A stretch of DNA of 54,054 nucleotides from a virus. Its lineage: Duplodnaviria > Caudoviricetes. The stretch covers positions 1 through 54,054 of the IMG/VR virus record IMGVR_UViG_3300047300_000614; one strand, written 5' to 3'. Each line of letters starts with the position of its first letter. The first letter of the stretch is position 1. Of the stretch, positions 12,969-44,643 are shown one piece after another. A program made the position numbers and the translations under genes. The notes below the pieces were generated by a model that was given only the letters and a program-made list of their open reading frames with translations, searched no databases and had not been told where the DNA came from.

Positions 12969-12980
12969 TCCCCATTTTTT
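12952..12980. terminator. Bidirectional terminator at the convergence of the two gene blocks
   Basis: AAAAATGGGGA-gattaa-TCCCCATTTTT perfect inverted repeat with A and T tracts at its ends. Confidence 0.85.
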
Positions 12981-29800: not shown

Positions 29801-32553
29801 CCAGTAGCTTTTAACTCAGCTTCTTCTTCTTTAACCTTTGCTTCCATTACTTTTGATAGCAATGAAACCATCTCTTGGTTATGGCTATTTAAATAGTTAG
29901 AGAAGTTAATTGGATCAATGATATGGTTGATGTTTTCCAACAACGCTTCATGATCATTCTGTAAGCTAAAGTAGTCAGTTAAGTTTTCAAATGCCGCACG
30001 TGCATTGTTATCTTGAACAGGTAACTTACCAGCTTTTGCCAACTGATCATTAATATAAGATGTAAAAGTTGGTAGTGCTTTCTCAGTAAACTCTTCTAAT
30101 GCCTTATTTAAAGCAGCAGCTTTCTTTTCTGGGTTTTTGTTATCAACACTGTTTGCAGCATCAAGTTTCTTTAAATACTTCTCAAGCTCTTTATTGTATT
30201 TATTTAAGCTATCAATCTTTGCTTCCTTTTGTTTCTTTAACTCAGGATCTTGAGTTGCTTCTGCTTCTTGTTGAAGTAACTTGATTTCACTTGCTAACTT
30301 ATCAGTTGAAGTAAGACTATAGATATCTGTAAAGCCAACGTTTTCAAAACCTGGTTTACGTTTGATGCTATCTAATACTTGTTGTTGACGAGTTATAGCA
30401 CGGTTATAAGTATCTTGCATAAAAGTAAGCTGATTAATAGCTTCCTTGTATGACATATAACTCATACCTTCTTTTATATACTCTTCAGTACCGTACTTAA
30501 AGTTACCTGGATTAAATGGATTAGCATAATCAGAAGATAGTTTGTTATGAATATCTCTGATCTCTTCAGCTCTTTGTGTAAAGATCTGAGTTTGCTTAAC
30601 CATATCAGCATGGTTCTCTTTTGTATACTCAACACCAAACGCCTGAGTAAACTCATCTTCATTAAGATTCTTTGTATAGTCAACTAATCGATCAGTTAAC
30701 AAATCAAGCATACCAGTATTGATACCAGTTAAGATAAACTGACGAGTAGCATCATCTTGAATATCATTAAATGCTTTCTTGTCTTTATTAACAGCTGATT
30801 CTCTTAATAACGCAGCAAAGTTTGATTGGTTAGCCGCACTCTCTTTGTTATAATTATAAGACAAAGGATTAGCGTAGATCTCGTTTATTGCATTCTTAAC
30901 GCTTGTTCTTGCACTAGCTTCTTTACCTATACGTTCATCGTATGCAGCTCTATCTGAAAGACGTTGTTGTAATGAACCTGCTCTATCAAATGCTACACCA
31001 GCAGCTCCCATGATAGTCCCTGTAAAGAAACCAGAGATAAATGTTTTAGCACCTTCAACACTAAATTGTTTTGAAGCAGCATCACGGATAGCATCAAACT
31101 TAGAGTCTAACTCTTGTCCGTTATACTTAGCCATATACCATGCTTTTACAGCATCTCCAGAAATACTTTGAGCATTCTCTTGTAAAGCTTCGGATAAGTT
31201 TGCACCAAAGTACTTTAATGGATTACTAACAATAGCATTCTTGTAATACATCCAGCGGTTATCAGCAGCTTCAATGACTTTCTTACCAATCTTTAAAGCA
31301 TCTTTATCACTAACAACAGCTAAACCTTTCATGATGTCTTCATCCATCATATAACGCAAAGGTTTGAATCCTTTTAACACGTTACTAAAGCCAAGCTTAT
31401 TGGACATTAAGATCATAGCTGTATTTGCAGTACCATTAACTTGTGCTGCTTCTAAAGCTTGATTCTTAATCTCTTGTTGTTCTTGGTCCGTTGGCTTTCT
31501 TCCATAACGTGTTTCAAAGTTATACGTCATTGAAGACTCAAGATCTGAGTATGTTCCAGACGCTTCTACTTTAGCTTCAGATAAAGCTAAGTTAAACTCT
31601 CTAAAGTCACGATACAAAGCACCAAATCCTCTTGCGGCAGTTCTTGCTTTTGCAAGAGATGTTGCACCGTATGCCATCTCATCAGCTCTACGCAAAGCTT
31701 TAAAGCCTGACGCAAAGTCCATGACATTGTCAATAGGATTGACTAAAGCTGTTGTCTTTTGTAAAACACTAAATGCCTTACGCATTGCATTTGCAGAGTG
31801 AATACTTTCTGATAACTCAGTAGTTCTCTTTGCTGCTTTTGCAATATTGCTTGCAAGTTTTACCGAACGAGCTGCTTGTAACTCAGCTGCTCCTCCAAAT
31901 GTTTGGGCAGTTAAATAACTTAATGCAGCTTCTTCTGCAGCAATCTCAACTGCTGCTCCAACCATAAATCCACTTTGCTGTAACGTATTAGCAATAGTGT
32001 TAAAGTTAAAGATACCTTGACGATCTGCTTCAGTTTCAAAAATAGGATTATCGTTTAATAAAGCTTTTTGACGACGAGCAAGTTCTTCCATCTCGTTCTT
32101 TTCAAAAGCTGCTTTCATCTCTTGACTAGAGAACACATCAAAAGTATCTCCCCAACTTTTAAACTGATCCACTGCTTGATTCCAAGCTAAAGCACCCATG
32201 CCGGTAAATGCATTCTTTAACTTGTCAAAGTTAGTTTGAGCATTACCGTATAGTTCTTCATTATTACGAAAAGGATTAAAACCTAATTCACCAAAGTATT
32301 CTGAGTTTGTATAACGATCTCTGTTTGTTGCTTCAGCATCATACGCAATAGGACGAAGTGATTCGTCTGTTGAAACTTGTGATAAGTTTTTTCTGGCAGA
32401 AGCCATGACATCTTGAAACTCACGATCAGCTTGTGCATAAGTTGCATTAGCTCTCATTGAGTCTAAAGGATTCGGCTGATCTGGAACGTATGCTGATAAG
32501 TCAGCTTGAGGAGTTGATACCTGGGTAATTAATGGTTGATATTCTTCTGCCAT
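17845..32553 (-). CDS. Virion RNA polymerase (crAss/phi14:2 gp66-like double-psi barrel type) in a 4902-aa multidomain fusion
   Basis: Catalytic GSDFDIDK (DFDIDK at 23260-23277), FRIPTQ (~23380-23397), ADGQAW and FVDAAKDP. Also HEAFE and HEQSH zincin-like motifs, two ASCH-like domains and a C-terminal SF1B helicase. Confidence 0.9.
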   Translation of the reverse strand: MAEEYQPLITQVSTPQADLSAYVPDQPNPLDSMRANATYAQADREFQDVMASARKNLSQVSTDESLRPIAYDAEATNRDRYTNSEYFGELGFNPFRNNEELYGNAQTNFDKLKNAFTGMGALAWNQAVDQFKSWGDTFDVFSSQEMKAAFEKNEMEELARRQKALLNDNPIFETEADRQGIFNFNTIANTLQQSGFMVGAAVEIAAEEAALSYLTAQTFGGAAELQAARSVKLASNIAKAAKRTTELSESIHSANAMRKAFSVLQKTTALVNPIDNVMDFASGFKALRRADEMAYGATSLAKARTAARGFGALYRDFREFNLALSEAKVEASGTYSDLESSMTYNFETRYGRKPTDQEQQEIKNQALEAAQVNGTANTAMILMSNKLGFSNVLKGFKPLRYMMDEDIMKGLAVVSDKDALKIGKKVIEAADNRWMYYKNAIVSNPLKYFGANLSEALQENAQSISGDAVKAWYMAKYNGQELDSKFDAIRDAASKQFSVEGAKTFISGFFTGTIMGAAGVAFDRAGSLQQRLSDRAAYDERIGKEASARTSVKNAINEIYANPLSYNYNKESAANQSNFAALLRESAVNKDKKAFNDIQDDATRQFILTGINTGMLDLLTDRLVDYTKNLNEDEFTQAFGVEYTKENHADMVKQTQIFTQRAEEIRDIHNKLSSDYANPFNPGNFKYGTEEYIKEGMSYMSYKEAINQLTFMQDTYNRAITRQQQVLDSIKRKPGFENVGFTDIYSLTSTDKLASEIKLLQQEAEATQDPELKKQKEAKIDSLNKYNKELEKYLKKLDAANSVDNKNPEKKAAALNKALEEFTEKALPTFTSYINDQLAKAGKLPVQDNNARAAFENLTDYFSLQNDHEALLENINHIIDPINFSNYLNSHNQEMVSLLSKVMEAKVKEEEAELKATGKKVEVDPEMEGLEGEGDGIIDNDAESFYARTGTEGQKPSYRKYGLLKTAGSHFLDDDKTINTENNNHIFFKFTEGVQILGNDFYLLPITADNDELGIRREDKFSDDIKLVVVKKLADGNYVYVDVAGNPLENPTKDTIVYTSLMGNKTLTADMSVKKNAEAAVKYIREIYTVEEEYTDEDIVKEVEMLQQFREMIKSETKKGKAQVLDITGVSQGVKKFAEKDSNNRPLEQDLQGIVIDMDTTDFRDLHHPSGEAMFLKVVTIEDDPEAENVRPGSIVLIGKNTNRIHRVYNRQLSEAEIANITDVLAYFTGLIGNKKRSAQEDTEFLAIKKYLSGILHWASPVEGVAVPSTMMYISKGKLYRGADSIKFDAKTIKKELPGMLTGKYHSVNSSLVRKTDKFTEVTMVNGVPQIKDYSNYNEYLLSNADGRVPVLFTNERPYDSNPSEAAGVQRAGRFLAFAPTEQDLTDSKATVEKNKSPQKIKEDKAQEAAKSVKDNGDAKGTTTTKKRLTIKNTAAESIDSTASSTPVADTPATPVVSSDIEALLAAGDILNASNEAGIDATGEEMVFRLQLGPVRQTEDFFKLAVFMKRALPQVPIHKMADLIENKAWGAFKNGAIYIYENAEIGTGFHEAFESVWNSYLTKAQQDELAQEFIKQDGTFYNPFTNETKPYAEASMYDVREMLAEAFRDYMLTGKLPVNMPKQQKTFFQELINFIRGIFGLKELEFNDLESKINKVFVSINEGEFANAVPVRDLNNLETVYRAIPGTSQEFTKYFLDGITSFFFRNLYLNKKNIDALLDDTADTNELLVSLFKQSLADAEAYTRGNKNEFLAEAVSRIEQKLNRKLTDLEKSGVFNKLLNDNRSVLNKYKGLYNQLDAAFANTEEIYDLFKTRVSKYGLIFKQSDNDYSSVEEGADELKKTDNLGIKDSISIDPRKFGATNFKLLLAGLTDDYFNVKKGEIYFKRNPLQLPKSLSYDRVYAILLNELNGSIQQYKDGKVVNAIDEMFTRLDAKFKIKPVSPKSKIKTYKEGYEWIQRLKVRLKYEDAFGKPYPTENLSADDIELLVGFEQSLLKIQNNPIRTVYGEDGVIISDDSILTSTTYGLRDQWAANASTTAKPLSLKTADELLGIDDSGNVVFDTMSTPYKQFMARLTAGATIEEKGEEAVERLAMLGIKFTNTYFNTEQYRVIVNAFSGIKAGISKGDIFSIQTLFSRTGANASINALLNLQIATTSEENVLSHVTADGEQQYTISNPSTAGYVINAINSAATLKDLVLGNPQFGTVNEKTGEVTLHPYQQRSLLLKPGGLVFDEKGNKRMVESETSIEQGVMKPFMLQYNLISGVMTAGIEGKTTADLTEPDRLMQEIYHLTQNVYYTVINSDKSSEFAISLPKAFYSIEDITSSAGLQGVKQIYLDQLLDEIDAAVEEHKQSANIQYYSQNEKNGIYDVKKLGHYRDILGKDLVKRVADIAAGTLDKNVFVNSNNVTRALNAHIEQGARDTIDELIKHDIVVYSKSSGTFASLSLDADFLKTYLGVSDPYQITKSQMTSLATFLFVNKEIAITEQHKILYGHPALYKDLPKRSNGINSTKEGITDNITVRTWMDKNMPRLDRKVRSSERVATMKNRTFDDITVSALRSKEYAEVIYAGMIANGMNAEKASQKLGVTFDKDNKFVGFIFDEKGGYTGEIAKYLEINEADGQAWIMPDMYRDLLFLSKKLTRKQKAQIEYEMAYEIVARSKKPTSSNAHKTYDKPVLEQAKKTLAKGNPGGILNVIKPQYFGYAIDNKLMHTVFLKNSAQPKFYRFVEGTAFEDIYIASQEAQDDIINLTSGQKVGATLNSKGGFTQIYDTDGNANVTRDKDGKLSFTDVPAQTLIMRYFGIQQEVPSTFKYAVVRGTQVSKLIMSNFRVKGVYTSKESEKLVKEYNQIMTEMVKIGKKSLLEELGLTEQANGNYKATDLSKIVSVLRNELKQRELPDNVVDAINTITNEEGFKELEYTLDSSTAREKIDNILNAIVDSRVISEKMPGKPLVQVANTLFETKGRSYVYLKDGVYTDIAASKVNELTDDEKKTVRMVSSDLAFYKKGTGKNAKTTSMEVYLPWFMEDLIPSGNMKLVNGILQTGDYEIDPTLLKAIGFRIPTQGMNSIDSIKVKGFLPKEMGDMIVLPSEITGKSGSDFDIDKLQVYLANHYKQGNKIVAYKWQGNAEKTKAYYEDLYDKGQLLSPSDLEKIEKFKAKEASTPEGRMILAMVSSMLGEDSIAVSWLEGLKNAEERREKIVQAAVKKALQNRYIEVMNDLVLLPENFAQLITPNTTATLKGLANKINTLKGKKDDENAGYANLRSIVASSRIRHRFVSGKKLVGIAALQITSHIMSQIAGTKLSGLYNPERIYYLVGKGIKDKTINIRLNHDSNKELSLSLTVTQNGSLISDLFNEALSGFVDAAKDPFTFDLNLTMDTAATWFYMQRLGIDVDDIAYFFNQPILDTYFKGVASNKSYFKKIKGYKAYNKMLALEAANPFLNYIQSTKEYEDVFKELEIKPIKGDIMNIYKDAEEAGNFMLIASLDKILGAIYRKAQTLQPTITTQELEDNIKTGAELQYTMYAVYGSGLDNEEAEVALEKDLADFGWSQIGIMSDYLEYSVQGNQLNDYIRAQGYDNKKSKNIRTNKIQQSRWNKVVKDGFIANPQDLLDNTFIGEMKAQKESIIKMFEPFFTLLDRRLDKVFDPLMRQLESDLFMTTDDIDSLVEKYQNFVFNYIIQNTVYKNANGKDVRINRFKKMFFGDNSWAKKLRAYRESDDSMIRNNMFIKNLVPIISPNEALPDNIKSLRSTEDINDIVDSAKELLQYAENTGNQDLSDFLKQIAIYSILQTGFQKNYNNFTPLLPVEIYSVLLKNILGRFNTNENVDFNPEVIWEQFHQNMAHDSNVVPTPRFYKFEQGTDNVLISVDSTDVNLDYIKRTVLAVKDKRDQAELIRNGRRDEIFSTILYKKSGQDVVVKGVIYSRYVPINPLGLKYRLTELSEDPFMQSVIQSNASNKMGNLRGVNSNVVNALLEEDEDIKAEKTGNRPVSLDISTTDNASELIATGVKTRIHSYGNPDAMRLNERGVATINGVKVYVTYKGFKTLEEAGGKQEVLRTEGVTEDQVKGRLVVWMRENPLNIRYHVYELAPFVEDTLLKPEEEGTDPFETTTTTVAPIEQNFKDGQDGRKMQPQFEGKSTMDLVLSGDRTRTTRAKTDIDRMMKDYGLTKIEDLVGKVIPMTDKSGRTAQTVITKVTPFTQEYQDETWEKEGWEKAVTDKLVGQYPYAIEFELVQPTKVTANVVAAKVENGIQIPAYTIDRSITNSDGSKRLAHTDGKSITINPVKTVDEFFDYFTGKVGGKSSVQKAEVLRQMEAISPVYSLDALKQIINTTKLANLFLVLHEQSHIDNDDASIYWANGRDLMSQDKIEIEARATIEALLKVIEYRGAVENPGQQTLDKYELFPGVFANEGQKKAIDNIDRFLKNKAANQFLLKGRGGTGKTTIINKAISESGISPKEVIGATVAHEARQVLQLSMTNYNTVSIASLLGLVQAYTKEGEEYFRERTAQEQAEFESKGLQDAVETAKLIVIDEASMIDDFIYEKLLSRMLPEAKVIFMGDNVQIPPINAEKTGDSPIWQLQDTEWFSELTERMRQGAESPILPVTDVYAENVEKMQKGLPGSVLSPLTDRTNKITDNEGVAFETNFKKAVEDFAKDYNDPAFTKGVVLVAARREVVDNFNNLIRRAIFNTSEAFVVGDVLRVDRNYTRNRKVEYENGLRGKVTAVKPVSVELLEEHGIQAYQVSMEIKTIDRDFKEVMKVVTFNTVDPKQNDEYRNILKQKYSIAERLPAGSIQRKNAYREAFIFEEAAVDVKFGYAITSHRVQGSTYDVTYVHETDIMSFPGSAEEQNRMMYTAVSRPRKKLVILSSGVPTVTAERTTTVSADTNRMNARLAAAREAREVLKNKDKGCKK

Positions 32554-32583: not shown

Positions 32584-35463
32584 TTAGTATGTAATCCCTA
32601 AAGATTGTTTTCTTTGTTCCCATGTTTGTGTGGGATCAACACCTAAGTTACTAAGAACTTTTTGATTTTTCCTAATAGAACCTAGGGCAATTGAGTTAAG
32701 TTCTTGTCTAATACTTCCAATATTTTTTGATATAGGCATCATCAAGCTTTCATGCTTAGTATGCATATTACCTGTTTTATCAGCTTCTTGATATGATACA
32801 CTTGCAATTAATTGATTACCTGCTGTATCTTTTGTTAGAGTCCATTCAACACCTAGTTCTTTAAGCCAGTTAGAAGACTTTAACTCACCACTCTTGTCAA
32901 AGTTTAAGAAGTCAACTGCTGCTGGTTCCCAGTCTGTATTAAAACCAGATACACTACCTTTCTTTACAGCAATCTCAACACCATCGTTAATTGCTTTAAG
33001 TGTTGCTTTTTGTTCATCGTTAAGACTATTTTCTCCACCAAGTAGTTTTACTACTTCAGCCCTATCAAAAAAGACTTTAACTGCTGCACCACCTGCTGCT
33101 CCGATTTTTGTTAAACCAACAGCATTGATAACGTTTCTTGCAGTAGGACCTTTTGTTAACTGAATAATATTCTTCAACTCATCTTCATCTGCACCTTGCT
33201 CTACTAATTGTTTTAAGTTAGTTGGTATACCACCTGTTTCTCCAAGGTTGTCTTCACTCATTGCTTGATCAACAATATTTTGAGCTACATCAGTTTCTTT
33301 TATTCTATCTGTGCGGAATATCTGCATTGATCCAATATAACTATCTCCACCAAGAACATTCTTTAACTGACCAGATGCACGCTCATCAAATGATTCAAGT
33401 AGTTTATCATATTGTTTTCCAGCTTCTTTAAATGTTGCCACAGCACGATCTTTTGCAGATGTGTATACAGGTACAACAGTTCCCATCACTAAAGATTGTG
33501 GAACTCCTGATGCTGTATTAGTTATTGTCTTTGCGTACTCATCAGCATTACTGTATCCAAAACGAGCTTTTAAGAACTCATTCTTACTCATTAGTTTACC
33601 ACCTTTACTAAGTGGTGCAAACATAGGATCTTTTAAAACTGAAGAATGGATATCGGTTTCTGCTTTAACAAGATTGCCATACGTTGTCATATTGCTTTCG
33701 TATCTTTCAATCTTATTCATATCAGATTCACTCAAGCCACCTGTATCTTTTCTTGCTATTATGAATCGCTTAGCGTTTTCAAATAACTTATTAAAAGTTG
33801 CAGTAGGACTTTGACCATATGCAATATTCTTATCAATAAGTCCTTTTTCTTGTAAACGTTTGTACTCAGCTAATACTTCTGGATCTGGATTCTTAGTGTT
33901 AAATACACCATTCTTTAAACCAGATCTATATGCTTCAATTAAAGCAGGTGCAATCTTTACTGCATCTTTATTTGTATTATAAGCATTTGCAGTAACAATA
34001 ATACTTGCTGCTTGATCGATACCTTCATGTAAACGACTTAACTTAATATCAGTAAAACGTTTCTTTGTTGCTATGATATCAAGACCTTTTGTATTAAGAC
34101 CAACATAAGTAGGAGTATTAATATCTAACGCTCCAAATCCTTCTCCATCAGACCCATCTTCAGAAGAACCGGATGATCCGGACTTTGATCCACTTCCACC
34201 TTTTAGTCGTTCTTTATAGTCAATCTTTTGTAACTCTTGATCGAACTTAATTTGATTAGCTTCAGCTTCAAGTTGTATCTTAGCAACATCATCAAGTGAG
34301 TAACTTGATTGCACTGCTGCAGCTCTTGATCTTGCAAATCGAGTTATGAAGTTATTCTCAGCAATATTAGAAAAGTATGCTTCGCCGCCTTTTGTGATGT
34401 TTGTGTAAAGATCTTGATATAACTTAGAGTTTTTATCACCTAAACTATTTACCTTTTGCTCATAATCACTTGCTGATTGACTTAGTCTTTTGTATTGATC
34501 AGATAAAGTCTTGAACTCTTTTGTTTGTTCAGCAGTAACAACTCCAGGGTTTGCAGTATATGCAGCATTCTTTGCATCAAGTTCAGACTTAAGCTTTTGT
34601 GCTTGTTCTGATACATCTGTAAAGCGTGCTTTTGTAGCTTCTAAATCTCTTGAAATAAAGTTGGTTGCTGCAAGATCTTTTGCTTGAGCTTCGGGCATAC
34701 CTTGTGATAAGTATGACTGTGTCAGATTATCATATTGAACAGCACCTTCAACACGAAAGATCTCTTTTGCTTGAGGCATTGTTGCTAATTGATGAGATAC
34801 CCATTCAGTATAGTTAGGTATTGACTTATCACCATTAACTGTTTTGATTTTATATCTACCTGTTGGATCCAATGTTTCTGACTCAACTTTAAAACCTTGT
34901 TCTTTTGCTCTAGCGTCCAGTTCTTTCATTACGTCAAAGAATGGAACATATTTATTTACTTGAACCTTACCAATAGAGCCATCACCACGACTTGCGTTTT
35001 GCATTTTACGTGCTGAGATATTTACAAAGTCAGCCCCCATTTGCCAGTATTGTTCACGCATCTTAGGATCAGAAGATTCAGCAAGCATAGCTGCTTTCTT
35101 TTGATTAGCTATAATCTGACTACTCTTACTATAATCTTGTAGTAAGTCTTGGTCTTGCCAGAAAGGAGAAAAGATTTGTTGAGCTGATTGAACGTTCTGT
35201 TGCTGAGATAAATCAAAAGAAGCTATATCTTTTAGTTTTGTTTGAGCTTGTTTTAAATACTCATCACGTACTTCAGCATTACCTTTAGCTAGTAAAGGAG
35301 CAGATAATATACTATTATAAGAACTCTTGATTTGGTTTAATCCTTGATCAAACAAATAGTTTCTTTTCTGAAGATCAGCAGCTATTGTTGAGAAATCAGG
35401 TGTGTATAGCGGAAGAGCCGCTATCGCATTGTGACCTGAAGGATATGGTGTTATTGAAGCCAT
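32584..35463 (-). CDS. Putative internal virion/ejection protein
   Basis: 959-aa helical/coiled-coil protein with a central Gly/Ser linker, located between the cargo-like genes and the vRNAP gene. Confidence 0.6.
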   Translation of the reverse strand: MASITPYPSGHNAIAALPLYTPDFSTIAADLQKRNYLFDQGLNQIKSSYNSILSAPLLAKGNAEVRDEYLKQAQTKLKDIASFDLSQQQNVQSAQQIFSPFWQDQDLLQDYSKSSQIIANQKKAAMLAESSDPKMREQYWQMGADFVNISARKMQNASRGDGSIGKVQVNKYVPFFDVMKELDARAKEQGFKVESETLDPTGRYKIKTVNGDKSIPNYTEWVSHQLATMPQAKEIFRVEGAVQYDNLTQSYLSQGMPEAQAKDLAATNFISRDLEATKARFTDVSEQAQKLKSELDAKNAAYTANPGVVTAEQTKEFKTLSDQYKRLSQSASDYEQKVNSLGDKNSKLYQDLYTNITKGGEAYFSNIAENNFITRFARSRAAAVQSSYSLDDVAKIQLEAEANQIKFDQELQKIDYKERLKGGSGSKSGSSGSSEDGSDGEGFGALDINTPTYVGLNTKGLDIIATKKRFTDIKLSRLHEGIDQAASIIVTANAYNTNKDAVKIAPALIEAYRSGLKNGVFNTKNPDPEVLAEYKRLQEKGLIDKNIAYGQSPTATFNKLFENAKRFIIARKDTGGLSESDMNKIERYESNMTTYGNLVKAETDIHSSVLKDPMFAPLSKGGKLMSKNEFLKARFGYSNADEYAKTITNTASGVPQSLVMGTVVPVYTSAKDRAVATFKEAGKQYDKLLESFDERASGQLKNVLGGDSYIGSMQIFRTDRIKETDVAQNIVDQAMSEDNLGETGGIPTNLKQLVEQGADEDELKNIIQLTKGPTARNVINAVGLTKIGAAGGAAVKVFFDRAEVVKLLGGENSLNDEQKATLKAINDGVEIAVKKGSVSGFNTDWEPAAVDFLNFDKSGELKSSNWLKELGVEWTLTKDTAGNQLIASVSYQEADKTGNMHTKHESLMMPISKNIGSIRQELNSIALGSIRKNQKVLSNLGVDPTQTWEQRKQSLGITY

Positions 35464-35518: not shown

Positions 35519-38500
35519 TTAGTCTTCACCATAGTAATTAAATGGATAAGCAGATGCTCCATAAGCTCCTCCCATAGGACCTAATAAACTACTAAGTCCG
35601 CTAAGCATTTGTCTTTGGGTTTTAGATAATGAACCATTTGCACCATATGTTGAAGTAGTTCTATTACCTTTTAGCATCTCCATTGCAAACTTACTAGCAT
35701 CTTCTTTACTTAATCCCGCATCCATACCTTTTTTGATTTGCTCAGCTATTGCAGCATATGGATCAGTATTAGAAGATCCTTTACCACTCATGATAAGCTG
35801 AGATATATCAACACCAGGTTTTAATACTTGGAAACCTGTTCTTGGATCAATATCAAAATACTCACTAGTTTTATTTAAAGCATCAAGCTTAGCACGATTA
35901 CCAAAGGCATTCTGATATGCAGCAAGAGTTTGTTTCTCAGCAGCATCTCTCATTGAGAAGTTTTCTAAGTTATACTTATTACTCATCTCAGCTAACATGT
36001 TTGCAGCCTGAGCTTTTTGTGCAAGGTTTTGATTAATAGTTGCTGCATTAACTGCATTAGCTTGATTTGCAATACCAACGTTCTGTGCATTTGTTGCAGC
36101 GTCAATATTTGCAATACCTTCTAATTGCTTACCAGCTATTTGACTAGATCCTGCTAAGTAAGACTGTGGTCTACCAAATGTACGTAATCCTTGGTTCTGC
36201 ATGTTTGCTTGCTCAGCAAGAGCAGCATATTGTCTTGTAGGATCAGCAAATACTGTTTCTGGTAATACATAATCAGGAGCTTGTACAAACGGTGACATTG
36301 TTGGAATACCAGCTCTAGTAATTAAACTCTGAAGAATAGCTGCTTTGTCAGGACGCATCATCCTAGCATTCTTTGGATTATATCCTGCACCTGCACTACC
36401 AGCAGTAGGACCTGTTGGTTGTGTATCTTCTGCAACATCTTTTGCAGCTGGTACATAATCTTCATCTCTAACATATCCAGCTGGTACATTATTTTGAGCT
36501 ACCTCTGGCGGTAACTGAAACTCTTCATTAGGATTAATATCAGAAGGGAAGTATGGATTAGTATACTGTTGTTTTTTTAACTCTTCGTTTTTAAACTGAT
36601 CCCATCTGTAACCTAACTTAGAATCATACATACCACCAATAGGCTTGCCATATTGCTTATGTAACTCATTAATACGAGCTGCTCTTTTTGGATCCTGCAT
36701 GATATACTTCTGTAATGCAAGATTATCTCCAGGAGTTCCGGTGTATCCTATTGATTTAGCATACTCATCCCAAGAAGAACTAGGGAACTTAGAAGCATTC
36801 TTTACACCTGAGTATCTGTCACCAGGCCAAGATTGAAAACCTCTTACTTCTCCACGTTTTTGATACTCAATAAGACCGCCTTCTTCTTTTGCAAAGTTGT
36901 GAGCAAAGACTGCTTTCTTAACCATCTCTGGAGAATACTGATCTTTGTTTGCTAAGATATGCGCAGCAGCTTCTTGAGTGCCCATACCCATACGAGTAGC
37001 TTGAGCTTTAAAGGTACCTTTCTTTGCAGGATCAATATGAATACCACCTTGTTGATACCAAGCATTACCTGAGAATGTTGAACCACCTTTCTTTGCGTAT
37101 TCTGCAGCTTCTGGTTCTTGTTCCATTCCTGGTTGTTCTTGCATACCACGAAGTTGCTCTACCAATTCTGGAGGTAACGCCATCATAGCGGCTTGAGGAA
37201 TACCTTGTGGAAATCCTTTCTTTGATTCTTGAGCTAATGCTAACTGGGCAAGCTTAAACTTGTTGTTATTCATCATCATCTCAGCTGTACGTTTTTGGTA
37301 CTGATCTGCATTTGGATCCTCTAAGATAGCTTTATATTTGTTAAGTTCATACTGTTTAGCTAATTCAGCTGGAGTATATCCTTTCTTTGTAGTTACAGAT
37401 TTACCAAACTGTGCTAATGCTTGACCTTTTAACTTCATACTTTTTGTATCTGAATAGATAAAAGTACCTGGCTTTAAGTTTAATGGTGTACCACCTTGAG
37501 AGTGACGCTTACCGCCAATCTTTGAGTGCTCCATTTCTCCATCACCATCTAAGTCACCATAAGCAGTTTCTCCTCGCTCAGCTTCTAGATTAGCCATATC
37601 TCTTGGTACAGCTTGTAATGTATCTTTTACAGCATAAGGATCTGGTTTACCCATCTCATTATCAATAACACGAGAACCAAGATCTAAACTATGTCCGTAC
37701 TGTCCACCATAAGCCATCTCTCCTAAATCTCCGCCAAACTGGCGAGTTATCATATCATAAGCAGTATTAAATCTACGTATCTGATTATTCGAATTAAGTA
37801 AACCTGGAATAAAGTTTTGTAATAGTTCTGGAGCATGTTTCATACCAGTACCTGTAACATGTTGTACAAACTGACTTGCTGGATTTAAATATTTGTCTGA
37901 TTGAGCAATAGGTGTTATAATATTATGGATTTTACCTGCAATATTTTTAGCTTTTGCAAACTTACCAATGTTAACAACTGCTTTAGCTCCTTTACCTGCT
38001 TTACCAATAAGTGGTAATGCAGAAGCCATTACTAAACCTTTTTCCCAACCTGGCATATTTGGATCATTGTATGCACGATACGCATCATCCCAAGCTGTAA
38101 TACCAGTTGGATCAAATACTTCAGCAATATCTTCTAAAACAGAATCTTCGTTTTGTCCCCCTTCTTGTAAGTGTCTTAAAAACTTAAATAGTGGAGTTGC
38201 TTTTGCTGCTGCAAATCCATCTTTAATAACAGGCCATAAACCTTTAGCTTCTTGATAAGCTTGCTCATATGCTTGATTAGCTGCACTTCTTCCGGCAACT
38301 GATGCAGGAGTAACACGTTTAAAACCAGCTTTAACGTTTTCAATCATCTTACCAAGATCTACTTCGTTATGGATCTTTTTAAGCTCAGCCATTTCACCTG
38401 CTGTATAGTTACCTCTAGTACGAATACTTTCAGCAATCTGCTCAGCTCTTTTAAAAGGATCAATAACTACTCTTGCACCAGCTTGTTTTGCTGCTTTACC

Positions 38501-39007
38501 AACTTGAGTTGCTGCAGTTTTATTAGCATTGTTATATAAATAACTTGCAGTACCCAGTCCTGCTAACGCTGATCCAGCAATACCCATAGGTATATATTGT
38601 GAAACAATAGGTAAATACTGAGACCATGAAGATTCTTCTTGCTCTTGAGGGGTTTCTGGTGCTGTGGCTTTAGGTAAAGTGTTTGGTGTAGATCTTACAT
38701 TACGAATAGGAGTTACCACAGGTCCTTCTTGAGCAACAGGTTGTTGTGCTGCCATTAAGGTATTTAAATCTTGAGTCTTTTTAAGCATCTCAAGCATCTG
38801 TAAGTTCTGTTCAGCAGTTCCTCGATAGTTTTCAATACCAAGGTTTTGAGCTATAGCTTTACGAGCATTGTAGCCAGCATTCTTTGCTTGACCATGTTCA
38901 GCTAAATAGTCATATACCGAAGGATTGTCTACGGGTGGAGTTTGTTGCCCACCAGTTTGATAATAACCATTAGGCTTTGCTGTAACTCTTACTTTATACT
39001 TCTTCAT
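35519..39007 (-). CDS. Modular virion cargo-like protein (DUF3597-like module, hydrophobic module, EAExGE/HxxGG domain, basic module)
   Basis: SVYDYL...YRGTAEQNLQML, DPTGITAWDD...LPLIGK, EAERGE...GKRHSQGG...FIYSD and GIHIDPAKKGTF. Modules are bounded by xxxGG motifs. Confidence 0.65.
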   Translation of the reverse strand: MKKYKVRVTAKPNGYYQTGGQQTPPVDNPSVYDYLAEHGQAKNAGYNARKAIAQNLGIENYRGTAEQNLQMLEMLKKTQDLNTLMAAQQPVAQEGPVVTPIRNVRSTPNTLPKATAPETPQEQEESSWSQYLPIVSQYIPMGIAGSALAGLGTASYLYNNANKTAATQVGKAAKQAGARVVIDPFKRAEQIAESIRTRGNYTAGEMAELKKIHNEVDLGKMIENVKAGFKRVTPASVAGRSAANQAYEQAYQEAKGLWPVIKDGFAAAKATPLFKFLRHLQEGGQNEDSVLEDIAEVFDPTGITAWDDAYRAYNDPNMPGWEKGLVMASALPLIGKAGKGAKAVVNIGKFAKAKNIAGKIHNIITPIAQSDKYLNPASQFVQHVTGTGMKHAPELLQNFIPGLLNSNNQIRRFNTAYDMITRQFGGDLGEMAYGGQYGHSLDLGSRVIDNEMGKPDPYAVKDTLQAVPRDMANLEAERGETAYGDLDGDGEMEHSKIGGKRHSQGGTPLNLKPGTFIYSDTKSMKLKGQALAQFGKSVTTKKGYTPAELAKQYELNKYKAILEDPNADQYQKRTAEMMMNNNKFKLAQLALAQESKKGFPQGIPQAAMMALPPELVEQLRGMQEQPGMEQEPEAAEYAKKGGSTFSGNAWYQQGGIHIDPAKKGTFKAQATRMGMGTQEAAAHILANKDQYSPEMVKKAVFAHNFAKEEGGLIEYQKRGEVRGFQSWPGDRYSGVKNASKFPSSSWDEYAKSIGYTGTPGDNLALQKYIMQDPKRAARINELHKQYGKPIGGMYDSKLGYRWDQFKNEELKKQQYTNPYFPSDINPNEEFQLPPEVAQNNVPAGYVRDEDYVPAAKDVAEDTQPTGPTAGSAGAGYNPKNARMMRPDKAAILQSLITRAGIPTMSPFVQAPDYVLPETVFADPTRQYAALAEQANMQNQGLRTFGRPQSYLAGSSQIAGKQLEGIANIDAATNAQNVGIANQANAVNAATINQNLAQKAQAANMLAEMSNKYNLENFSMRDAAEKQTLAAYQNAFGNRAKLDALNKTSEYFDIDPRTGFQVLKPGVDISQLIMSGKGSSNTDPYAAIAEQIKKGMDAGLSKEDASKFAMEMLKGNRTTSTYGANGSLSKTQRQMLSGLSSLLGPMGGAYGASAYPFNYYGED

Positions 39008-39027
39008 ATTAATATAGTATCTACTCT

Positions 39028-39065
39028 ATAATTTACTAAAATATTGCTAGTTTAACAAGCTAAAC
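39028..39065 (-). promoter_or_regulatory. Putative late promoter (GTTTA..TAAAC-N13-GTAAATTAT)
   Basis: Shared intergenic motif, 20 nt upstream of the ATG at 39007. Confidence 0.55.
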
Positions 39066-39074
39066 CTCAAGGGT

Positions 39075-41360
39075 TTAAAGGAACTCAACATCTCCACCCA
39101 TTGCTTTGATCTGCATGATTTGATCTGCTGTAAGTTCATACTCCCCACCTTGTTGCATTAATTCAATATGTAAGTGATCACCTTCATTAATGATATCCTC
39201 TATACCATATTGTCTTTTTATGCTAGGATTTTGGGCTAAGAACTTTGTCAATCGATTGTAAGCTGCTGGGTCAGAAGAGTTTGCACCAATATCAATAGCT
39301 TTGTTTGCATAATGTTTAGATCCTCTCATATGCTTACTATCGTTTCCAGATGAGATTTTTAATCCTGGGAAATAATCAGACATTGCAGAAGCAAATGATT
39401 TCAAGTTAGGATCTAAGTTGTTTGTGTTTACTCCTTTCTTTGTACTTATGTTTTTAGTTAAGTAACTCATTGGAGTTGTACCAAACGCATCTTTTGTATA
39501 CTTACCAGTTCTGATATACTTCTCTGCTCCTTCTGGACCTTGGAAGTGAATCAACATCTTAATCTGATTTGTATCAAGATTAGGATTATATTGTTGTTTA
39601 ATCTTTTGAGCTTTTGGTGTAAGTACATTCTGATCCCAATAATCAAAGTATGCTTCTTGTGCTTTTGGACTATTCAAGAACTGGCTCTTACTATTAACAC
39701 CAGTCACTGTACGGATAGTATCTTTGTGAGTATCCCATAAGAACTGATATTTACCAGCAGCTGAACTTGCAAGTGTACCATCTTTTCTACGAGGTAATGC
39801 TTGGTAGTTACCTAGGCTTTCTCGTTGCGCAATAATCTCTCTTAAGTTTCCTTCCGGTGCTTCATATGAAGACTCTGCTTGTTCAGGAGCTTCTTGAGAT
39901 ACTGACATATCATTTGGTTGTGCCCGCATTGATGAGAAATCAAACTCAGGTGTACCGATACCTATTGTATTAATACCAGCTGCGTCATCAAAAGAGTCAA
40001 CTGTATATTTAGATACTGTATCCATTGATACAGGAACCTCAATACCTTGTTGTGCAAATGTTTGATTTGGTCTAAACATACCATATGAACTTGGTCCTTG
40101 TGAAAAGTTACCTCTGTTCATTGTATCATTATACTGTTGATTCCAAGATGCATTCTGAGCACGTAGCATTTGACGGTTAGCTTCTTCACGCTGATTCTGA
40201 TTCTCTAAAGCTTGCATTTGTGAATATGTATTAAATGCATTGAATACACTATCACCAAAATCAGAAACATAATCATCAGCCTTTTCTACTTTTCTTAAGA
40301 AGTTATTTGCTTTTATTTGCCATGGTGAACTTATCTTTTTACCATCTGCTTTAACTGGATTTGTTTCTTGTTGTTTATTAACAACATATCCGCTTTGTTG
40401 TACTTTAGGCGTAGCAGTATTTGTAGTACCAGTCCAACCTGTTTTCCAATCATAAGTAGGGGCACCTGTTAATTGTGGATTAGTTGTACCAGCAGTTGCT
40501 TGTGTTGTTGATGTAGTACCTGTTGGATTTTGACCTACTATTGTAGGTAGATTAAACTGACCAACTGGTTTTTGTTGAATCTGCAAACTTGGCGCAGTCT
40601 GAATATTATATTGCGGTTTAGTTTGTTCAACTGGCTGAGCAACAGTTTGTTGTTGTACAGGTTGTTGTACTGCTTGTTGCTGTGCAACTGCTTGTGCAAC
40701 TGGTTGTGCAGCAGCTTGCGTAGTAGACTGAGTTATAGACTTTGGTGTTTGATATTGTCCAAAGATACCTAAACGTGGTTTCCATGTAGCATTATACGCG
40801 GTACTAGGCTGACCGTTTACCGTATTGATGTTACGATAGTAGTAATCTCTACCTGCATCCATTAACTTAACACGTTCTTCTAGTGGAAGTGCATCAATCT
40901 TTGCTTGATATGATTTATACAAATTTTCAAACTCACCAGCTTTAGCTCCTTTAGCACGGTATGCTCCACGATCTTGAAGACCATTAGGCATATTTTCATA
41001 TTGACGTACATACTGATCTAGCATGTATAAACGAGCATCTTCACCAGTGTTGTATAAAAAGTCACCTGCACGCTCACGCATACCCATTGGTAGACCCTGA
41101 ACCTTTGGTAAATAATCTTGTTGAAAATAACCTACAGCTTCATCTAAAGTTTTTGGATTACGAGTATGATATCCCCAATCAGAAAGACCTGTTCCAGTAG
41201 GAGATCCGTGTTGATATTCATAATCAAAGATTCTTTTTATCCAACTAGTATTATCTTCTTGTGGAGTCTGGCCATTAAACTCACCTAGCGTTTGTGCTTT
41301 TATTAATCCGCCTTGACGTTTAATATCAGGTTTTGCTAATCCTGTGATACGAATCTTCAT
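39075..41360 (-). CDS. Putative virion-associated peptidoglycan hydrolase: GH108-like, lysozyme/transglycosylase-like and M15-type peptidase domains
   Basis: IAQRESLGNY...SAAGKYQF (lysozyme-like fold); ISSG...SKHYANKAID...HLHIE (M15: SxH...D...HxH); N-terminal FDYE...WG...EAVGYFQQDY...LP...DFLYNTG (GH108-like, a weaker call). ATG at 41360 lies 1 nt after the upstream stop. Confidence 0.75.
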   Translation of the reverse strand: MKIRITGLAKPDIKRQGGLIKAQTLGEFNGQTPQEDNTSWIKRIFDYEYQHGSPTGTGLSDWGYHTRNPKTLDEAVGYFQQDYLPKVQGLPMGMRERAGDFLYNTGEDARLYMLDQYVRQYENMPNGLQDRGAYRAKGAKAGEFENLYKSYQAKIDALPLEERVKLMDAGRDYYYRNINTVNGQPSTAYNATWKPRLGIFGQYQTPKSITQSTTQAAAQPVAQAVAQQQAVQQPVQQQTVAQPVEQTKPQYNIQTAPSLQIQQKPVGQFNLPTIVGQNPTGTTSTTQATAGTTNPQLTGAPTYDWKTGWTGTTNTATPKVQQSGYVVNKQQETNPVKADGKKISSPWQIKANNFLRKVEKADDYVSDFGDSVFNAFNTYSQMQALENQNQREEANRQMLRAQNASWNQQYNDTMNRGNFSQGPSSYGMFRPNQTFAQQGIEVPVSMDTVSKYTVDSFDDAAGINTIGIGTPEFDFSSMRAQPNDMSVSQEAPEQAESSYEAPEGNLREIIAQRESLGNYQALPRRKDGTLASSAAGKYQFLWDTHKDTIRTVTGVNSKSQFLNSPKAQEAYFDYWDQNVLTPKAQKIKQQYNPNLDTNQIKMLIHFQGPEGAEKYIRTGKYTKDAFGTTPMSYLTKNISTKKGVNTNNLDPNLKSFASAMSDYFPGLKISSGNDSKHMRGSKHYANKAIDIGANSSDPAAYNRLTKFLAQNPSIKRQYGIEDIINEGDHLHIELMQQGGEYELTADQIMQIKAMGGDVEFL

Positions 41361-41361
41361 A

Positions 41362-44300
41362 TTAAATAATATCAAATGTATAACCTTGTCTTTTTAACTC
41401 AAACATCTCTTCAGGAGTTACATCAATCTCTTGCCCTAAACTTAATTGCCCACCATGCTTTTTATCAGGAGTTACGTATAACGACATACCTTGATTATAT
41501 GGAATGTTAGTAAAGTATGGTTTGTTCAAAGTACTTTTACGACAGTTAATACAACCTGCACTCATTCGATTATTCTTAACATTATTGTCTCCAAAAAGTG
41601 GAAGACGTTGTTTTTCTAATGCAACTGGTACACCATGTAATGCTGCAGTAACTGCTCGATTAGGATCTTTAGGATCTGGTATTAATCGTTTATTAGGATC
41701 AATATGCTGCATTGTAAAAAAGTTATTCGATCCATACTGACTAGCAATATCAGCAACCTTTCCTATTTTATTTGTCTTTGTTACTTTATACTCTCCAGAT
41801 GGTGTAGTTCTAACCTTATAAAATATAGGCTGCGCATCTCCTGCATCTGAACCTAATCCAACTTCATCTTGAAGAACTAGATTACCGTCTTCGTCAAAGA
41901 AATACCCGCGGGAGTTTTGCTTTGATACAATACCAAACTTCTTGCCTTTATTAGTATCATGATACTGATTATAATATCCAGCAACGTCTTGCGGAAGAAT
42001 AAAGTCAGTGTTCTTAACCTCATCTTCATTCACATTCAATAGTTTATAAAGCCAGTTACGATTGTCGATTTTATTTGTTACTCTTTGCATACCTTTAGGT
42101 ACTGGTGGCATTTGACGAGATGCTGAAGCAACATTTCTAAAAGGTACAGCTGCTTGAACTCCAGGTGTTGGGAATGCAACATTAGGTCTAACTTGTTGAA
42201 ACCTTTGCTGCTGCCCTTGCAACATCTGCATCATCTTTAAGTTTTGTTCCGCAGAGCCAGTATAGTTACCATTAAAGTATTGGTCAAACATTTTTTTACG
42301 ATTAGCAAAAGAAGCATTTAATCCTCTTTGTGTCATGTAATCATAAATACTACCGCCTTGCTGTAGGTTCTTTAACCAGTTAATACCTTTGTTAAACCAA
42401 CTAGCTTCTTCCATGGCTTCTACAGGTTCATATTTACCAATACCGTTAAGCTGAATACCATTTTTCATATTATCAAATACTAAATAAGAAGGATGACCAG
42501 ATCCAGCACCTGTGCCATGAACTAATTGACCAGGTTCATTAATATATCCTGTATGCTCATATTTTCTAGAACCAGGATAAAGTCTTGGGCCATAATCACC
42601 GGAGTCATTACTCTTTTCTTGAGAAGTTGCTCTTGCTGCTTTACCTTTTGCTTTTCTACCTGAAGCATCAAGACTATTGTTAATACGATTTAGTCCTACT
42701 AAATAACCCGCATCAAGGCTCTGTAAATATTCAGGAACAGCATATGAAGTAGGATCAGGTAATAGTTCTTGATTACTCTCAATCATTCCTTCATAATTAG
42801 GATTTGTCCAAACAACTGGATTTTGATTACCTAGTAACCAAGCATGATTACGACCAAAATCATAACCTTTTGCACGAGCAAAACTAGTAGCAATATCAGC
42901 ACAACCTTTAGCTGTACAAACAAAACGACTGTTAGGATACATTTTATTAAGCATCTCTGCTTTTTCTACCCAGTCTTTATCAATAGTATTATCACCTACT
43001 TCAGGATATATCTTAGCAATATCTATATAACCATCTTTCGATCTTACTTGACCAGCTTTTTGATATTTTTTCATAACTCCGCCATATTGTTTGTATTGAT
43101 CATATGCTTGATAAGCATCAGATCCTCTTCCTATTACTGGTCCATACTTACCAGTAGCTTTTAAAAGTTCAGCTGCAGCTTTTGCATTCCTCTTTTGTCT
43201 TTTAGTAATTGCTAATCCTGTAGAAAGCATATCTACTAATTGACCAAACTTCTTAGCTTTACCTAACATAGGTATTGCACCAAAAGCTTCAAGAGCAGTT
43301 GCACCAGACATTCCTGAATCAATAGCTGATCGATACACATCATCCCAAGAAGATATACCACTAGGATCAATTATCTCAAAGATATTTTCACCAAGTGTAT
43401 CAGGCATTTGTCCTCTATAATTACCAGGACGAACATGTTTTGCTACATTACCTAATCTTGTGTTATCTGGATATGCTATAGTCTGTCCACCCGGTTGCAT
43501 TTTATTTTTACCAGTAACTACGTTAGTACCTTGTTTATATCCATTAGCACCATACCATGTAGCTTGTTCGTCATTAGGGAACTGAATATACTGACCAGTG
43601 TCCATTGCGTAGTTATAAGCAGCACGAGGATCTCTTTGATTTAACCACTCTACAAACTTATTACCTGGACGTTGAACAACAGTAGGATAAGCACGAGCAT
43701 CACCGGATTCCATAAAATGCGTACTTGGTTTTTTAGAACCAGGTAAGAACATCTGTGGAGCATTAGGATTGTACATACGCTGAACAAAGTTCTTGTCCAT
43801 GTTTGCATTATTTACACTATCAACCCACGCTGTTCTATTAGAATCCCATAGACCGCCAAACTGCATCTTAGATTTGATCTTACGTTCTTGCTCTAGCATC
43901 TCCTTAGTAGGTTTTTTACCAGAACCTTTATTAGCACGAATGTTATCCCAAAGACCACGTCTTGAATATGAACCATCCGCTCTACGAATCATCTCACCAC
44001 CATTCTTAAGCTCTGCCATATCTAAAAAAGATTGTGCATTATAAGTAACATTATCACGATTAAAATCAGACATCATTTGTCGCGCAATCTCTGCACGATT
44101 TTGTCGATCTTCTATTTGAGATAATATATCAGCAATACCGTTAACCATCTCACGCTCATCAGATGTCTGACCACCTTCTGCCCAAGTTTTTCTAGCAAAA
44201 GCTCTAAAGAAAGGATTGTTCTCTAGATTCTTTTTATGACGTGCATAGAAAGCTTTCTTACGTTTAGGATCTTTTGGATGTTGACCCATGCTAGAATCGC

Positions 44301-44643
44301 CAAAGTATTTAACAGTACCATCTGGACCAGTAACTTTATGAGTCTTTCCTTTGCGATCATTACTTCGTGTAACAACATATCCACCACTACCCATCATTGG
44401 ATACTCAGTAACATTATCAGCATCAGGATAATAATACTGTTGATCAGGATACATCATTTGTGGTTGCCCTACATTAGGTACACCTAACACAGGATAACTA
44501 ACTGCATCCATAGTAATACTATTAGATGGGATGTTTGTTATCTCACCAGGATGTTGCCATTGGTTTTTCGGAACCTTTAGTTTACTAGGTTTCTTGTTTA
44601 AGTCCTTTGTAATCTGTGATAGTAATGATCTGTTATAACTCAT
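41362..44643 (-). CDS. Modular virion cargo-like protein with NlpC/P60-like, DUF3597-like and L,D-transpeptidase domains
   Basis: GCADIA...HAW...EHTGY...LVHG (papain-like fold), SIYDYM...YTGSAEQNLKM, and TPSGEY...ALHG...SAGCIN (YkuD signature). Eight xxxGG motifs separate the modules. Confidence 0.72.
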   Translation of the reverse strand: MSYNRSLLSQITKDLNKKPSKLKVPKNQWQHPGEITNIPSNSITMDAVSYPVLGVPNVGQPQMMYPDQQYYYPDADNVTEYPMMGSGGYVVTRSNDRKGKTHKVTGPDGTVKYFGDSSMGQHPKDPKRKKAFYARHKKNLENNPFFRAFARKTWAEGGQTSDEREMVNGIADILSQIEDRQNRAEIARQMMSDFNRDNVTYNAQSFLDMAELKNGGEMIRRADGSYSRRGLWDNIRANKGSGKKPTKEMLEQERKIKSKMQFGGLWDSNRTAWVDSVNNANMDKNFVQRMYNPNAPQMFLPGSKKPSTHFMESGDARAYPTVVQRPGNKFVEWLNQRDPRAAYNYAMDTGQYIQFPNDEQATWYGANGYKQGTNVVTGKNKMQPGGQTIAYPDNTRLGNVAKHVRPGNYRGQMPDTLGENIFEIIDPSGISSWDDVYRSAIDSGMSGATALEAFGAIPMLGKAKKFGQLVDMLSTGLAITKRQKRNAKAAAELLKATGKYGPVIGRGSDAYQAYDQYKQYGGVMKKYQKAGQVRSKDGYIDIAKIYPEVGDNTIDKDWVEKAEMLNKMYPNSRFVCTAKGCADIATSFARAKGYDFGRNHAWLLGNQNPVVWTNPNYEGMIESNQELLPDPTSYAVPEYLQSLDAGYLVGLNRINNSLDASGRKAKGKAARATSQEKSNDSGDYGPRLYPGSRKYEHTGYINEPGQLVHGTGAGSGHPSYLVFDNMKNGIQLNGIGKYEPVEAMEEASWFNKGINWLKNLQQGGSIYDYMTQRGLNASFANRKKMFDQYFNGNYTGSAEQNLKMMQMLQGQQQRFQQVRPNVAFPTPGVQAAVPFRNVASASRQMPPVPKGMQRVTNKIDNRNWLYKLLNVNEDEVKNTDFILPQDVAGYYNQYHDTNKGKKFGIVSKQNSRGYFFDEDGNLVLQDEVGLGSDAGDAQPIFYKVRTTPSGEYKVTKTNKIGKVADIASQYGSNNFFTMQHIDPNKRLIPDPKDPNRAVTAALHGVPVALEKQRLPLFGDNNVKNNRMSAGCINCRKSTLNKPYFTNIPYNQGMSLYVTPDKKHGGQLSLGQEIDVTPEEMFELKRQGYTFDII

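Follow-up and report, generated by a model that had tools for sequence, protein, structure and literature searches.

Adenovirus and African swine fever virus process their virion precursors after Gly-Gly (GG), with adenain as the protease in the former and pS273R, acting on pp220 and pp62, in the latter. Double-glycine leader peptides are cut by C39 peptidase domains. In phage T4, capsid-targeting sequences and internal proteins are cut by the head protease gp21, and phiKZ has inner-body proteins. The polyvalent proteins of phages and conjugative elements, reportedly described by Iyer et al. in 2017, are said to be long virion-delivered chains of unrelated small enzymatic or effector domains, and an embedded peptidase has been proposed to process both them and the fused RNA-polymerase polyprotein of crAss-like phages. 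In ΦcrAss001, passages of the structure paper describe cargo protein C1 (gp45) as stretched and partly unfolded between tail and capsid (PMC10172136) and as docking by short segments on portal, barrel, and muzzle (PMC10172136, Bayfield et al. 2023). Here we analyzed a 54-kb phage contig (IMG/VR record IMGVR_UViG_3300047300_000614, positions 1 to 54,054; referred to below as the window), in which three adjacent genes encode predicted virion cargo (ejected) proteins of a crAss-like phage, P0001, P0002, and P0003. Their modules meet at a five-residue junction word, hydrophobic-[A/Q/K/E]-x-G-G. The word holds up as a real feature, is specific to the cargo slot, and recurs throughout the family. 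We tentatively favor reading it as an uncleaved hinge or stop junction that insulates shuffled beads of the chain.

The locus resembles each of the described systems in part. N-terminal leaders of 15–25 residues ending in GG recall the C39 substrates, whereas the motif here is mostly internal and repeated. T4 and phiKZ likewise have short N-terminal leaders on head-packaged, injected proteins, and there the head protease is encoded beside the portal and capsid genes and cuts after Glu. The general build of the chain is that of polyvalent proteins and the RNA-polymerase polyprotein, but a defined junction word and very small modules are, as far as our literature searches show, not part of the description of polyvalent proteins. 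If the residues of the word are numbered P5 to P1, with the second Gly as P1, the likeness to the adenain and pS273R substrates lies in repeated hydrophobic-x-(x)-G-G sites in internal virion proteins, followed by any residue (compare the abstract of PMC10308890); the hydrophobic residue, however, stands at P5 here and not at P4, and cleavage of the present proteins is hypothetical. With ΦcrAss001 the locus shares a place between the muzzle gene and those of the virion RNA polymerase, together with one GG-flanked module. In contrast, sequence similarity to gp45 is weak, ΦcrAss001 has one GG-rich gene where the window has three, and the GG sites of gp45 mostly read A-[YF]-G-G and lack a hydrophobic P5. 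Our literature searches, which took in passages of PMC10172136, PMC6235969, PMC10136315, and bioRxiv 10.1101/2020.03.07.982082, found no description of the motif, in line with the original prediction from the sequence of the window, whose author knew of none for crAss-like phages.

That prediction also took the phage to be crAss-like, and this is borne out by the muzzle gene in the window (crAss_MUZ, 3.7e-26) and by a syntenic relative, G001 (130,037 bp, CheckV 100%, analyzed whole), which has CrAss_Ring_1, CrAss_Ring_2, and a major capsid protein that matches Crass_capsid at 7e-29. The muzzle gene precedes the three cargo genes and the RNA-polymerase open reading frame (ORF) containing DFDID follows them, which places them in the slot of the cargo proteins gp45 and gp46 in ΦcrAss001.

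Every motif first listed for the three proteins was recovered, with all quoted coordinates correct, including the variants YQKAG, AQTLG, and YQKRG, as were the three ORFs (Table 1). The GG dipeptide itself is not enriched, with observed and expected counts of 8 and 9.3 in P0001, 3 and 4.5 in P0002, and 11 and 9.8 in P0003. Its context, by comparison, is strongly enriched. The pattern [MLIVFYWKR][QAK]xGG fits 14 of the 22 GG sites in these proteins and 1 of the 37 in the remaining 19 ORFs that are 150 aa or longer (Fisher p=3e-7), in agreement with the earlier impression that the flanking large proteins lack it. Against an expectation of 9.5%, 14 fits correspond to a binomial p of 7e-10, and none of 5000 within-protein shuffles reached this number. 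Most GGs outside the pattern belong to a different class: SKIGG and HSQGG do not vary across 51 aligned homologues and lie inside a confidently predicted domain of P0003.

Cargo proteins are rich in Gly (7.7–9.2%) and module shuffling is rampant, so a compositional artefact, micro-homology from shuffling, or a DNA-level recombination signal might be suspected behind the word. We consider an explanation of this kind very improbable, and it is largely refuted: the composition-preserving shuffles never matched the observed count (0/5000), no position of the motif is tied to one codon (GGT, GGC, GGA, and GGG are all used, as are CAA and CAG), and the pattern persists in distant relatives. No DNA-level conservation was found at the motifs, and the variation of their codons indicates that selection acts on the protein. 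Rare Gly codons cluster at the motifs, with 11 of the 24 GGC or GGG codons falling among the 44 motif Gly codons (267 Gly codons in the three genes); possible reasons are that GGTGGT repeats are avoided or that translation slows at module boundaries.

With a cut-off of E<=0.001, relatives were counted in a set of 8000 scored candidates of similar length and, separately, in shorter proteins. P0001 has 861 relatives of similar length and 904 among the shorter proteins, and P0003 has 181. Most of them cover just 7–25% of the query at 60–90% identity, which points to shuffled modules. After redundancy filtering, 157 members yielded 1629 unique GG contexts. P5 is hydrophobic in 66% of these against a background of 28% (M 26%, Y 18%, F 11%, W 7%), P4 is A, Q, K, or E, and Met and aromatic residues are enriched at both P5 and P3. 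A weak bias follows at the two residues after the second Gly, P1' and P2', in favor of E/Y and I/T/V. Eleven related loci were tried, and in the ten that could be scored the cargo slot (2–4 genes; 29,022 aa) holds 139 strict motifs among 403 GG sites, compared with 10 among 150 in the other ORFs (34,355 aa; Fisher p=1.5e-12). Further loci have a single long GG-rich gene in the slot. Not every GG is a junction, since that of the cyanophage-type module (WY-KSKGG-xW) is intrinsic to the module and also present in stand-alone cyanophage proteins. This N-terminal module of the ~400-aa cargo proteins (P-x-N-P-x-L-W...WY-K-S-K-G-G) occurs in T4-like cyanophages (L060 Sf-CH8, L061 P-TIM68) and a roseophage as well, indicating that small modules circulate far beyond crAss-like phages.

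Module exchange takes place at the motif. In an all-against-all BLAST of 123 members, 26% of the 25,106 internal ends of high-scoring segment pairs (HSPs) fall exactly on the second Gly and 46% within two residues of it, as against 6% of random positions, numbers that describe a pattern and not independent events because the sequences are related and the shared motif extends the alignments. HSP starts accumulate 1–5 residues before the preceding GG. A comparison of the window with two related loci, L001 and L002, showed that entire modules have been gained, lost, or transferred from gene to gene exactly at motifs. Indels between relatives thus do end at the motif, as had been anticipated. In L001 and L002, one gene of 1417 or 1448 aa replaces the P0001 and P0002 genes; in the window, a single nucleotide separates the stop codon of the 1093-aa gene from the probable ATG of the next (TAA T ATG; window 41358-41364, minus strand). 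Since homologues begin with MKIRITG, the true start of P0002 is most likely this ATG, at 41360 and 1 nt after the upstream stop. The 766-aa ORF first reported does exist, with a TTG start, and it is this start that probably needs correction.

Structure predictions place the motif in linkers. AlphaFold2 models of P0001 and P0003 have mean predicted local distance difference test (pLDDT) scores of 60.1 and 58.1, with confident islands (aa 31-82, 535-760, and 765-815 of P0001; aa 30-88, 460-620, 660-706, and 880-1070 of P0003) separated by low-confidence stretches. Thirteen of the 15 listed sites in these two proteins fall within segments of pLDDT below 50, WAEGG abuts such a segment, and LQQGG sits in a dip between two confident domains. 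The sites are accordingly found between domains, as first supposed, and none of those listed for P0001 and P0003 was predicted to lie inside a folded domain. At seven sites (WAEGG, LKNGG, MQFGG, LQQGG, LQEGG, RQFGG, and KEEGG), a predicted helix ends 0–2 residues from P5. In glycine helix termination (Schellman and alpha-L motifs), a hydrophobic residue stands about one turn before the helix-stopping Gly. The seven helix ends fit this rule, but the second Gly, the tandem arrays, and the leaders are left unexplained by it. A Foldseek search of the whole P0001 and P0003 models against the PDB returned nothing (best E 0.39 and 2.9), multi-domain models with half of their residues below pLDDT 50 being poor queries, and an ESM Atlas look-up returned viral clusters of the same family only.

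Matches of the Pfam type in the cargo proteins (YkuD, DUF3597-like, and HH_signal-like, with DUF5754 and DUF5872 in homologues) assign several unrelated domains to one polypeptide. The NlpC/P60 and SLT labels used in Table 1 are without Pfam support even at E<=10 and rest on conserved Cys/His and E-S...G-K-Y-Q-F residues. PDB sequence searches gave no match for P0001 or P0003 and weak hedgehog/LAS matches for P0002 (E 0.2), and neither the locus nor P0001 matched cultured or GenBank phages by megablast and tblastn. A further wall-peptidase module, Peptidase_M23 (PF01551) together with PF26571, is swapped into the same scaffold in the P0003 homologues P0288, P0316, and P0334. P0002 has a long Q/T/P/A-rich low-complexity stretch after its N-terminal domain, at aa ~215-330 (window 40380-40730, minus strand).

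Taken together, slot specificity, the position at module boundaries and in linkers, the helix ends, the absence of the motif at protein ends, and the failure to find a GG-specific or head-maturation protease lead us to favor an uncleaved junction, as a tentative preference that leaves some room for explanations not considered here. In this reading, each cargo protein is a string of small, independently folding modules that are freely exchanged between relatives, and we infer that the chain stays intact. Some of the modules would act on or bind the cell wall (YkuD, the LAS-type Zn-peptidase-like, Cys-His, and DUF3597-like modules), and others are small and basic (DUF5754, DUF5872). The junction word belongs to the C-terminal end of the upstream module and lies in a flexible linker, where its Gly residues could act as a stop or hinge that terminates the last element of secondary structure and shields the module from its successor. 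This would let each bead go through folding, unfolding, and refolding on its own during packing and threading through the narrow tail, and nearly any module could be spliced in at a junction.

Several points weigh against such a hinge. A plain linker needs no conserved five-residue word, and a word conserved from P5 to P1, with conservation breaking off sharply after P1, suggests recognition by a partner. Neither the short N-terminal leaders that end in the motif nor the tandem arrays with spacers of 3–9 residues are explained by it, and 8 of the 15 sites lack a preceding predicted helix. Low pLDDT may come from shallow mosaic alignments and not from true disorder. The HSP and homologue counts come from related sequences, in which the shared motif itself helps alignments reach the GG, and so do not represent independent events. 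Finally, covalent linkage of the modules is not strictly needed, because the number of genes in the slot varies from 1 to 4.

Many members end in a conserved tail of ~25 residues directly after the last GG, of which P0001 and P0002 each carry a variant. Second and later genes of the slot begin with a leader of the type M-K-x-[YI]-K-V-R-I...P...[AQ]-x-G-G; the first 20 residues of P0003 form such a short leader ending in the motif, and relatives have leaders of 7 and 11 residues. Tandem motifs are frequent: 277 of 1725 GG-to-GG distances (16%) are shorter than 10 residues, with spacers of 3–9 residues, and members of ~400 aa carry 12–14 motifs in tandem runs, or ~3 per 100 aa. Such arrays with very short spacers would suit a multivalent short linear motif, in which hydrophobic-x-x-G-G words serve as stickers or docking tags. 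The enrichment of Met and aromatic residues at P5 and P3, the position-specific N- and C-terminal modules, and the docking of C1 by short segments in the available passages on ΦcrAss001 are also consistent with this idea. We nevertheless judge it improbable, as a tag would not have to mark each module boundary exactly or be lost where a module closes the protein. The DUF5872-type module behaves in just this way, ending without the motif (...KAKNK) when C-terminal in the protein and being followed by it when internal, which also weakens the packaging tag proposed in the original prediction.

A relation to ΦcrAss001 C1 is indicated, weakly, over one module. tblastn with the P0003 module at aa 654-710 matched six Crassvirales and related records at E 3e-11 to 2e-6. 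The module is GG-flanked in the first gene after the muzzle gene in Rudgehvirus jaberico (gene49) and cr108_1 (gp_22604), and a diverged copy is present in gp45. In a pairwise comparison, P0003 and gp45 aligned over one module at E 0.004, with an hhalign probability of 1% and no Foldseek match; the 959-aa protein downstream weakly matched gp46 (C2), at E 0.031. gp45 has a basic leader ending in FDTGG and 21 GG sites against 13.3 expected. Those at 427, 434, and 447 fall inside one resolved portal-bound domain (425-552), and those at 263, 332, and 373 fall between the tail-barrel part (214-245) and the portal part (425-552).

The original prediction read the three proteins as polyproteins cleaved after GG. 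Its cargo-like genes, discrete modules, and indels at the motif stood up, but cleavage is unsupported by our searches, though not refuted. In its fullest form, this alternative has the chain cut after the second Gly by a virion-packaged or host protease that recognizes P5 to P1, at assembly or after ejection, to give ~20 small proteins and peptides; we consider it somewhat unlikely. Information concentrated at P5–P1, homology that breaks exactly after P1, sites in accessible linkers in the AlphaFold2 models, tolerance of gene fusion and fission in the slot, and a motif that closes short N-terminal leaders but is missing from the C-termini of proteins would all follow from such cutting. It would also account more simply for a gp45 with parts in both tail barrel and portal and with GGs between them. 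The three gp45 GGs within one resolved domain speak against it, as do the closely spaced tandem motifs and the frequency of Pro at P1', which is not depleted (109 of 1629, 6.7%, against a background of 5.7%). Across junctions spanned by alignments of 30–60% identity, GG is retained in 63% of cases, no better than Gly in general (70%), although misalignment at indels may lower the first figure.

No candidate of a known GG-specific type was found. At E<=1, the window, the complete G001, and a further relative, G002, have no match to Peptidase_C5 (adenain), Peptidase_C48 (Ulp1), or Prok-JAB (0/3 records each; the African swine fever virus family itself was not searched), so that the clan-CE proteases of the adenain and pS273R systems have no detected counterpart here. 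C39 was likewise missing from G001 and G002 at E<=1 (0/2 records) and from the general Pfam scans of the window proteins. The 41 late proteins of G001 contain no protease family but the fibre chaperone S74, and none is encoded between the portal and capsid genes, where a head protease of the T4 kind would be expected. The Cys-His module was rejected as a universal GG protease, since jackhmmer finds it in L001 and L002 but in none of 46 other loci (2 of 48).

A different source of activity could be the RNA-polymerase block. The giant ORF of the window contains HEQSH (aa 4334), and the sole HExxH of the G001 proteome also lies in an RNA-polymerase-block protein. The latter gave sub-threshold zincin matches (M1 0.026, M56 0.063, DUF3267 0.21), whereas the HExxH region of the window gave none. 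Zincins usually read P1', yet P1' is weakly constrained here. Passages of bioRxiv 10.1101/2020.03.07.982082 call the fused RNA-polymerase-block polyproteins of crAss-like phages 'likely cleaved' and describe a packaged Zincin-like protease domain, which lends the idea some support. It is possible, if doubtful, that the junction words are sites for an unrecognized virion-associated protease, perhaps the HExxH domain of this block. They would then mark precursor cassettes, possibly including gp45, diced into dozens of small wall-degrading enzymes, basic proteins, and spacer peptides, with payload insertable at any junction. In the available passages of the ΦcrAss001 structure paper (PMC10172136) and of a 2023 review, the words cleav-, proteol-, and protease do not occur, nor do those of the structure paper mention the motif; the 2018 ΦcrAss001 paper puts gel-mass discrepancies down to modification or anomalous mobility.

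The cargo genes belong to a late-gene block on the minus strand that encodes, in order, proteins of 1529, 1093 (P0001), 766 (P0002), 1162 (P0003), 959, 4902, and 1616 aa. The helicase part of the 4902-aa protein (aa 4386-4857) is of the Dda/PIF1 type. In G001, its counterpart is split into proteins of 1995, 2838, and 1272 aa and is strongly diverged, with only aa 1-905 alignable (72% identity); the fusion point, at which we meant to check for the motif, could not be located because the proteins are too diverged. RNA-polymerase-block proteins begin with M-A-C or M-T-C (window 12979-17829 and 17845-32553, minus strand; G001 genes at 77221 and 85740), and the protein upstream of each such start has a basic, Cys-containing tail (...KKCN, ...NQCK, ...GCKK), so that Cys is found at both ends of consecutive cargo proteins of this block. 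ΦcrAss001 (L012, MH675552.1, 81394-83792) encodes gp76, annotated as ThiF-like, and a neighbor, gp77, with a metalloprotease domain. Pairs of an E1-like protein and a peptidase of this kind act on Gly-Gly C-termini; neither the window nor its relatives yielded a JAB match.

Table 1. Coordinates and composition of the cargo locus in the window (residue numbers refer to the protein named; low-confidence segments are those of pLDDT<50)
Feature	Coordinates	Strand	Basis or remark
crAss muzzle gene, 1529 aa	44640..49229	-	Pfam PF25731; directly upstream of P0001
Cargo protein 1, P0001, 1093 aa	41362..44643	-	ORF
Cargo protein 2, P0002, 766 aa from TTG	39075..41375	-	ORF
Cargo protein 3, P0003, 1162 aa	35519..39007	-	ORF
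959-aa protein, position of cargo protein C2, without motif pattern	32584..35463	-	Slot position
4902-aa fused RNA-polymerase-block ORF	17845..32553	-	DFDID at aa 3093, HEQSH at aa 4334, SF1 helicase at aa 4386-4857
P0001 parts, N to C: N-terminal beta domain, DUF5754-type, helical, DUF5872-type, two more modules, Cys-His, DUF3597-like wall-binding, YkuD, C-terminal tail
P0002 parts: leader MKIRITG...KRQGG, N-terminal domain, Q/T/P-rich stretch, putative SLT-like stretch, LAS/hedgehog-like Zn-peptidase stretch, C-terminal tail
P0003 parts: leader MKKYKVRV...YQTGG, wall-binding-like module, hydrophobic stretch, core aa 460-620, Crassvirales C1-common module aa 654-710, long helical C-terminal part
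MGSGG, P0001	44380..44394	-	Within low-confidence segment 85-91
WAEGG, P0001	44170..44184	-	Ends helix 148-155; low-confidence segment 158-164 begins at last Gly
LKNGG, P0001	43996..44010	-	Within low-confidence segment 209-220
MQFGG, P0001	43852..43866	-	Within low-confidence segment 259-308; 21 HSP ends at aa 264
MQPGG, P0001	43486..43500	-	Next module (aa 387-522) lacking in both L001 and L002; homologue at P0003 aa 284-426
KQYGG, P0001	43078..43092	-	Junction motif; AlphaFold2, comparison with relatives
LQQGG, P0001	42352..42366	-	Between Cys-His and wall-binding-like modules; pLDDT dip of 61-68 between two confident domains
KKHGG, P0001	41449..41463	-	Precedes C-terminal tail
KRQGG, P0002	41307..41321	-	Closes N-terminal leader
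MQQGG, P0002	39144..39158	-	Precedes C-terminal tail
YQTGG, P0003	38948..38962	-	Closes N-terminal leader
LQEGG, P0003	38156..38170	-	Ends helix 272-281; within low-confidence segment 277-306
RQFGG and MAYGG pair, P0003, 9 residues apart	37703..37744	-	Junction motifs
AKKGG and YQQGG pair, P0003, flanking a conserved short peptide	37043..37096	-	Junction motifs
KEEGG, P0003	36875..36889	-	Follows module common to Crassvirales C1 proteins
YkuD (L,D-transpeptidase-like) domain, P0001 aa 905-1037	41533..41931	-	E 9.8e-5; 23.4 bits, exactly at cut-off
Cys-His module, P0001 aa 535-760, confident fold	42364..43041	-	AlphaFold2; NlpC/P60-like label from conserved residues only
Conserved folded core, P0003 aa 460-620	37148..37630	-	pLDDT 82-92; holds invariant non-motif GGs SKIGG and HSQGG
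C-terminal tail of P0001, 28 aa	41365..41448	-	Ending common to many family members
C-terminal tail of P0002, 22 aa, with intrinsic KAMGG	39078..39143	-	Sequence

Crassviruses, which rank among the most abundant phages known, must pack, order, and eject ~5 MDa of cargo protein. In hundreds of their cargo proteins (861 and 904 relatives for one query), module boundaries carry the conserved junction word, which points to sites at which virion proteomics could look for neo-termini, to residues to mutate, and to positions that might accept foreign modules. Cutting at these sites would make this the first maturation system of the Gly-Gly type in tailed phages and would change the reading of the ΦcrAss001 structure, in which one cargo protein appears in tail and capsid alike. 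Without cutting, the word would be a clear example of an insulating junction that allows plug-and-play exchange of modules in proteins that unfold for injection.

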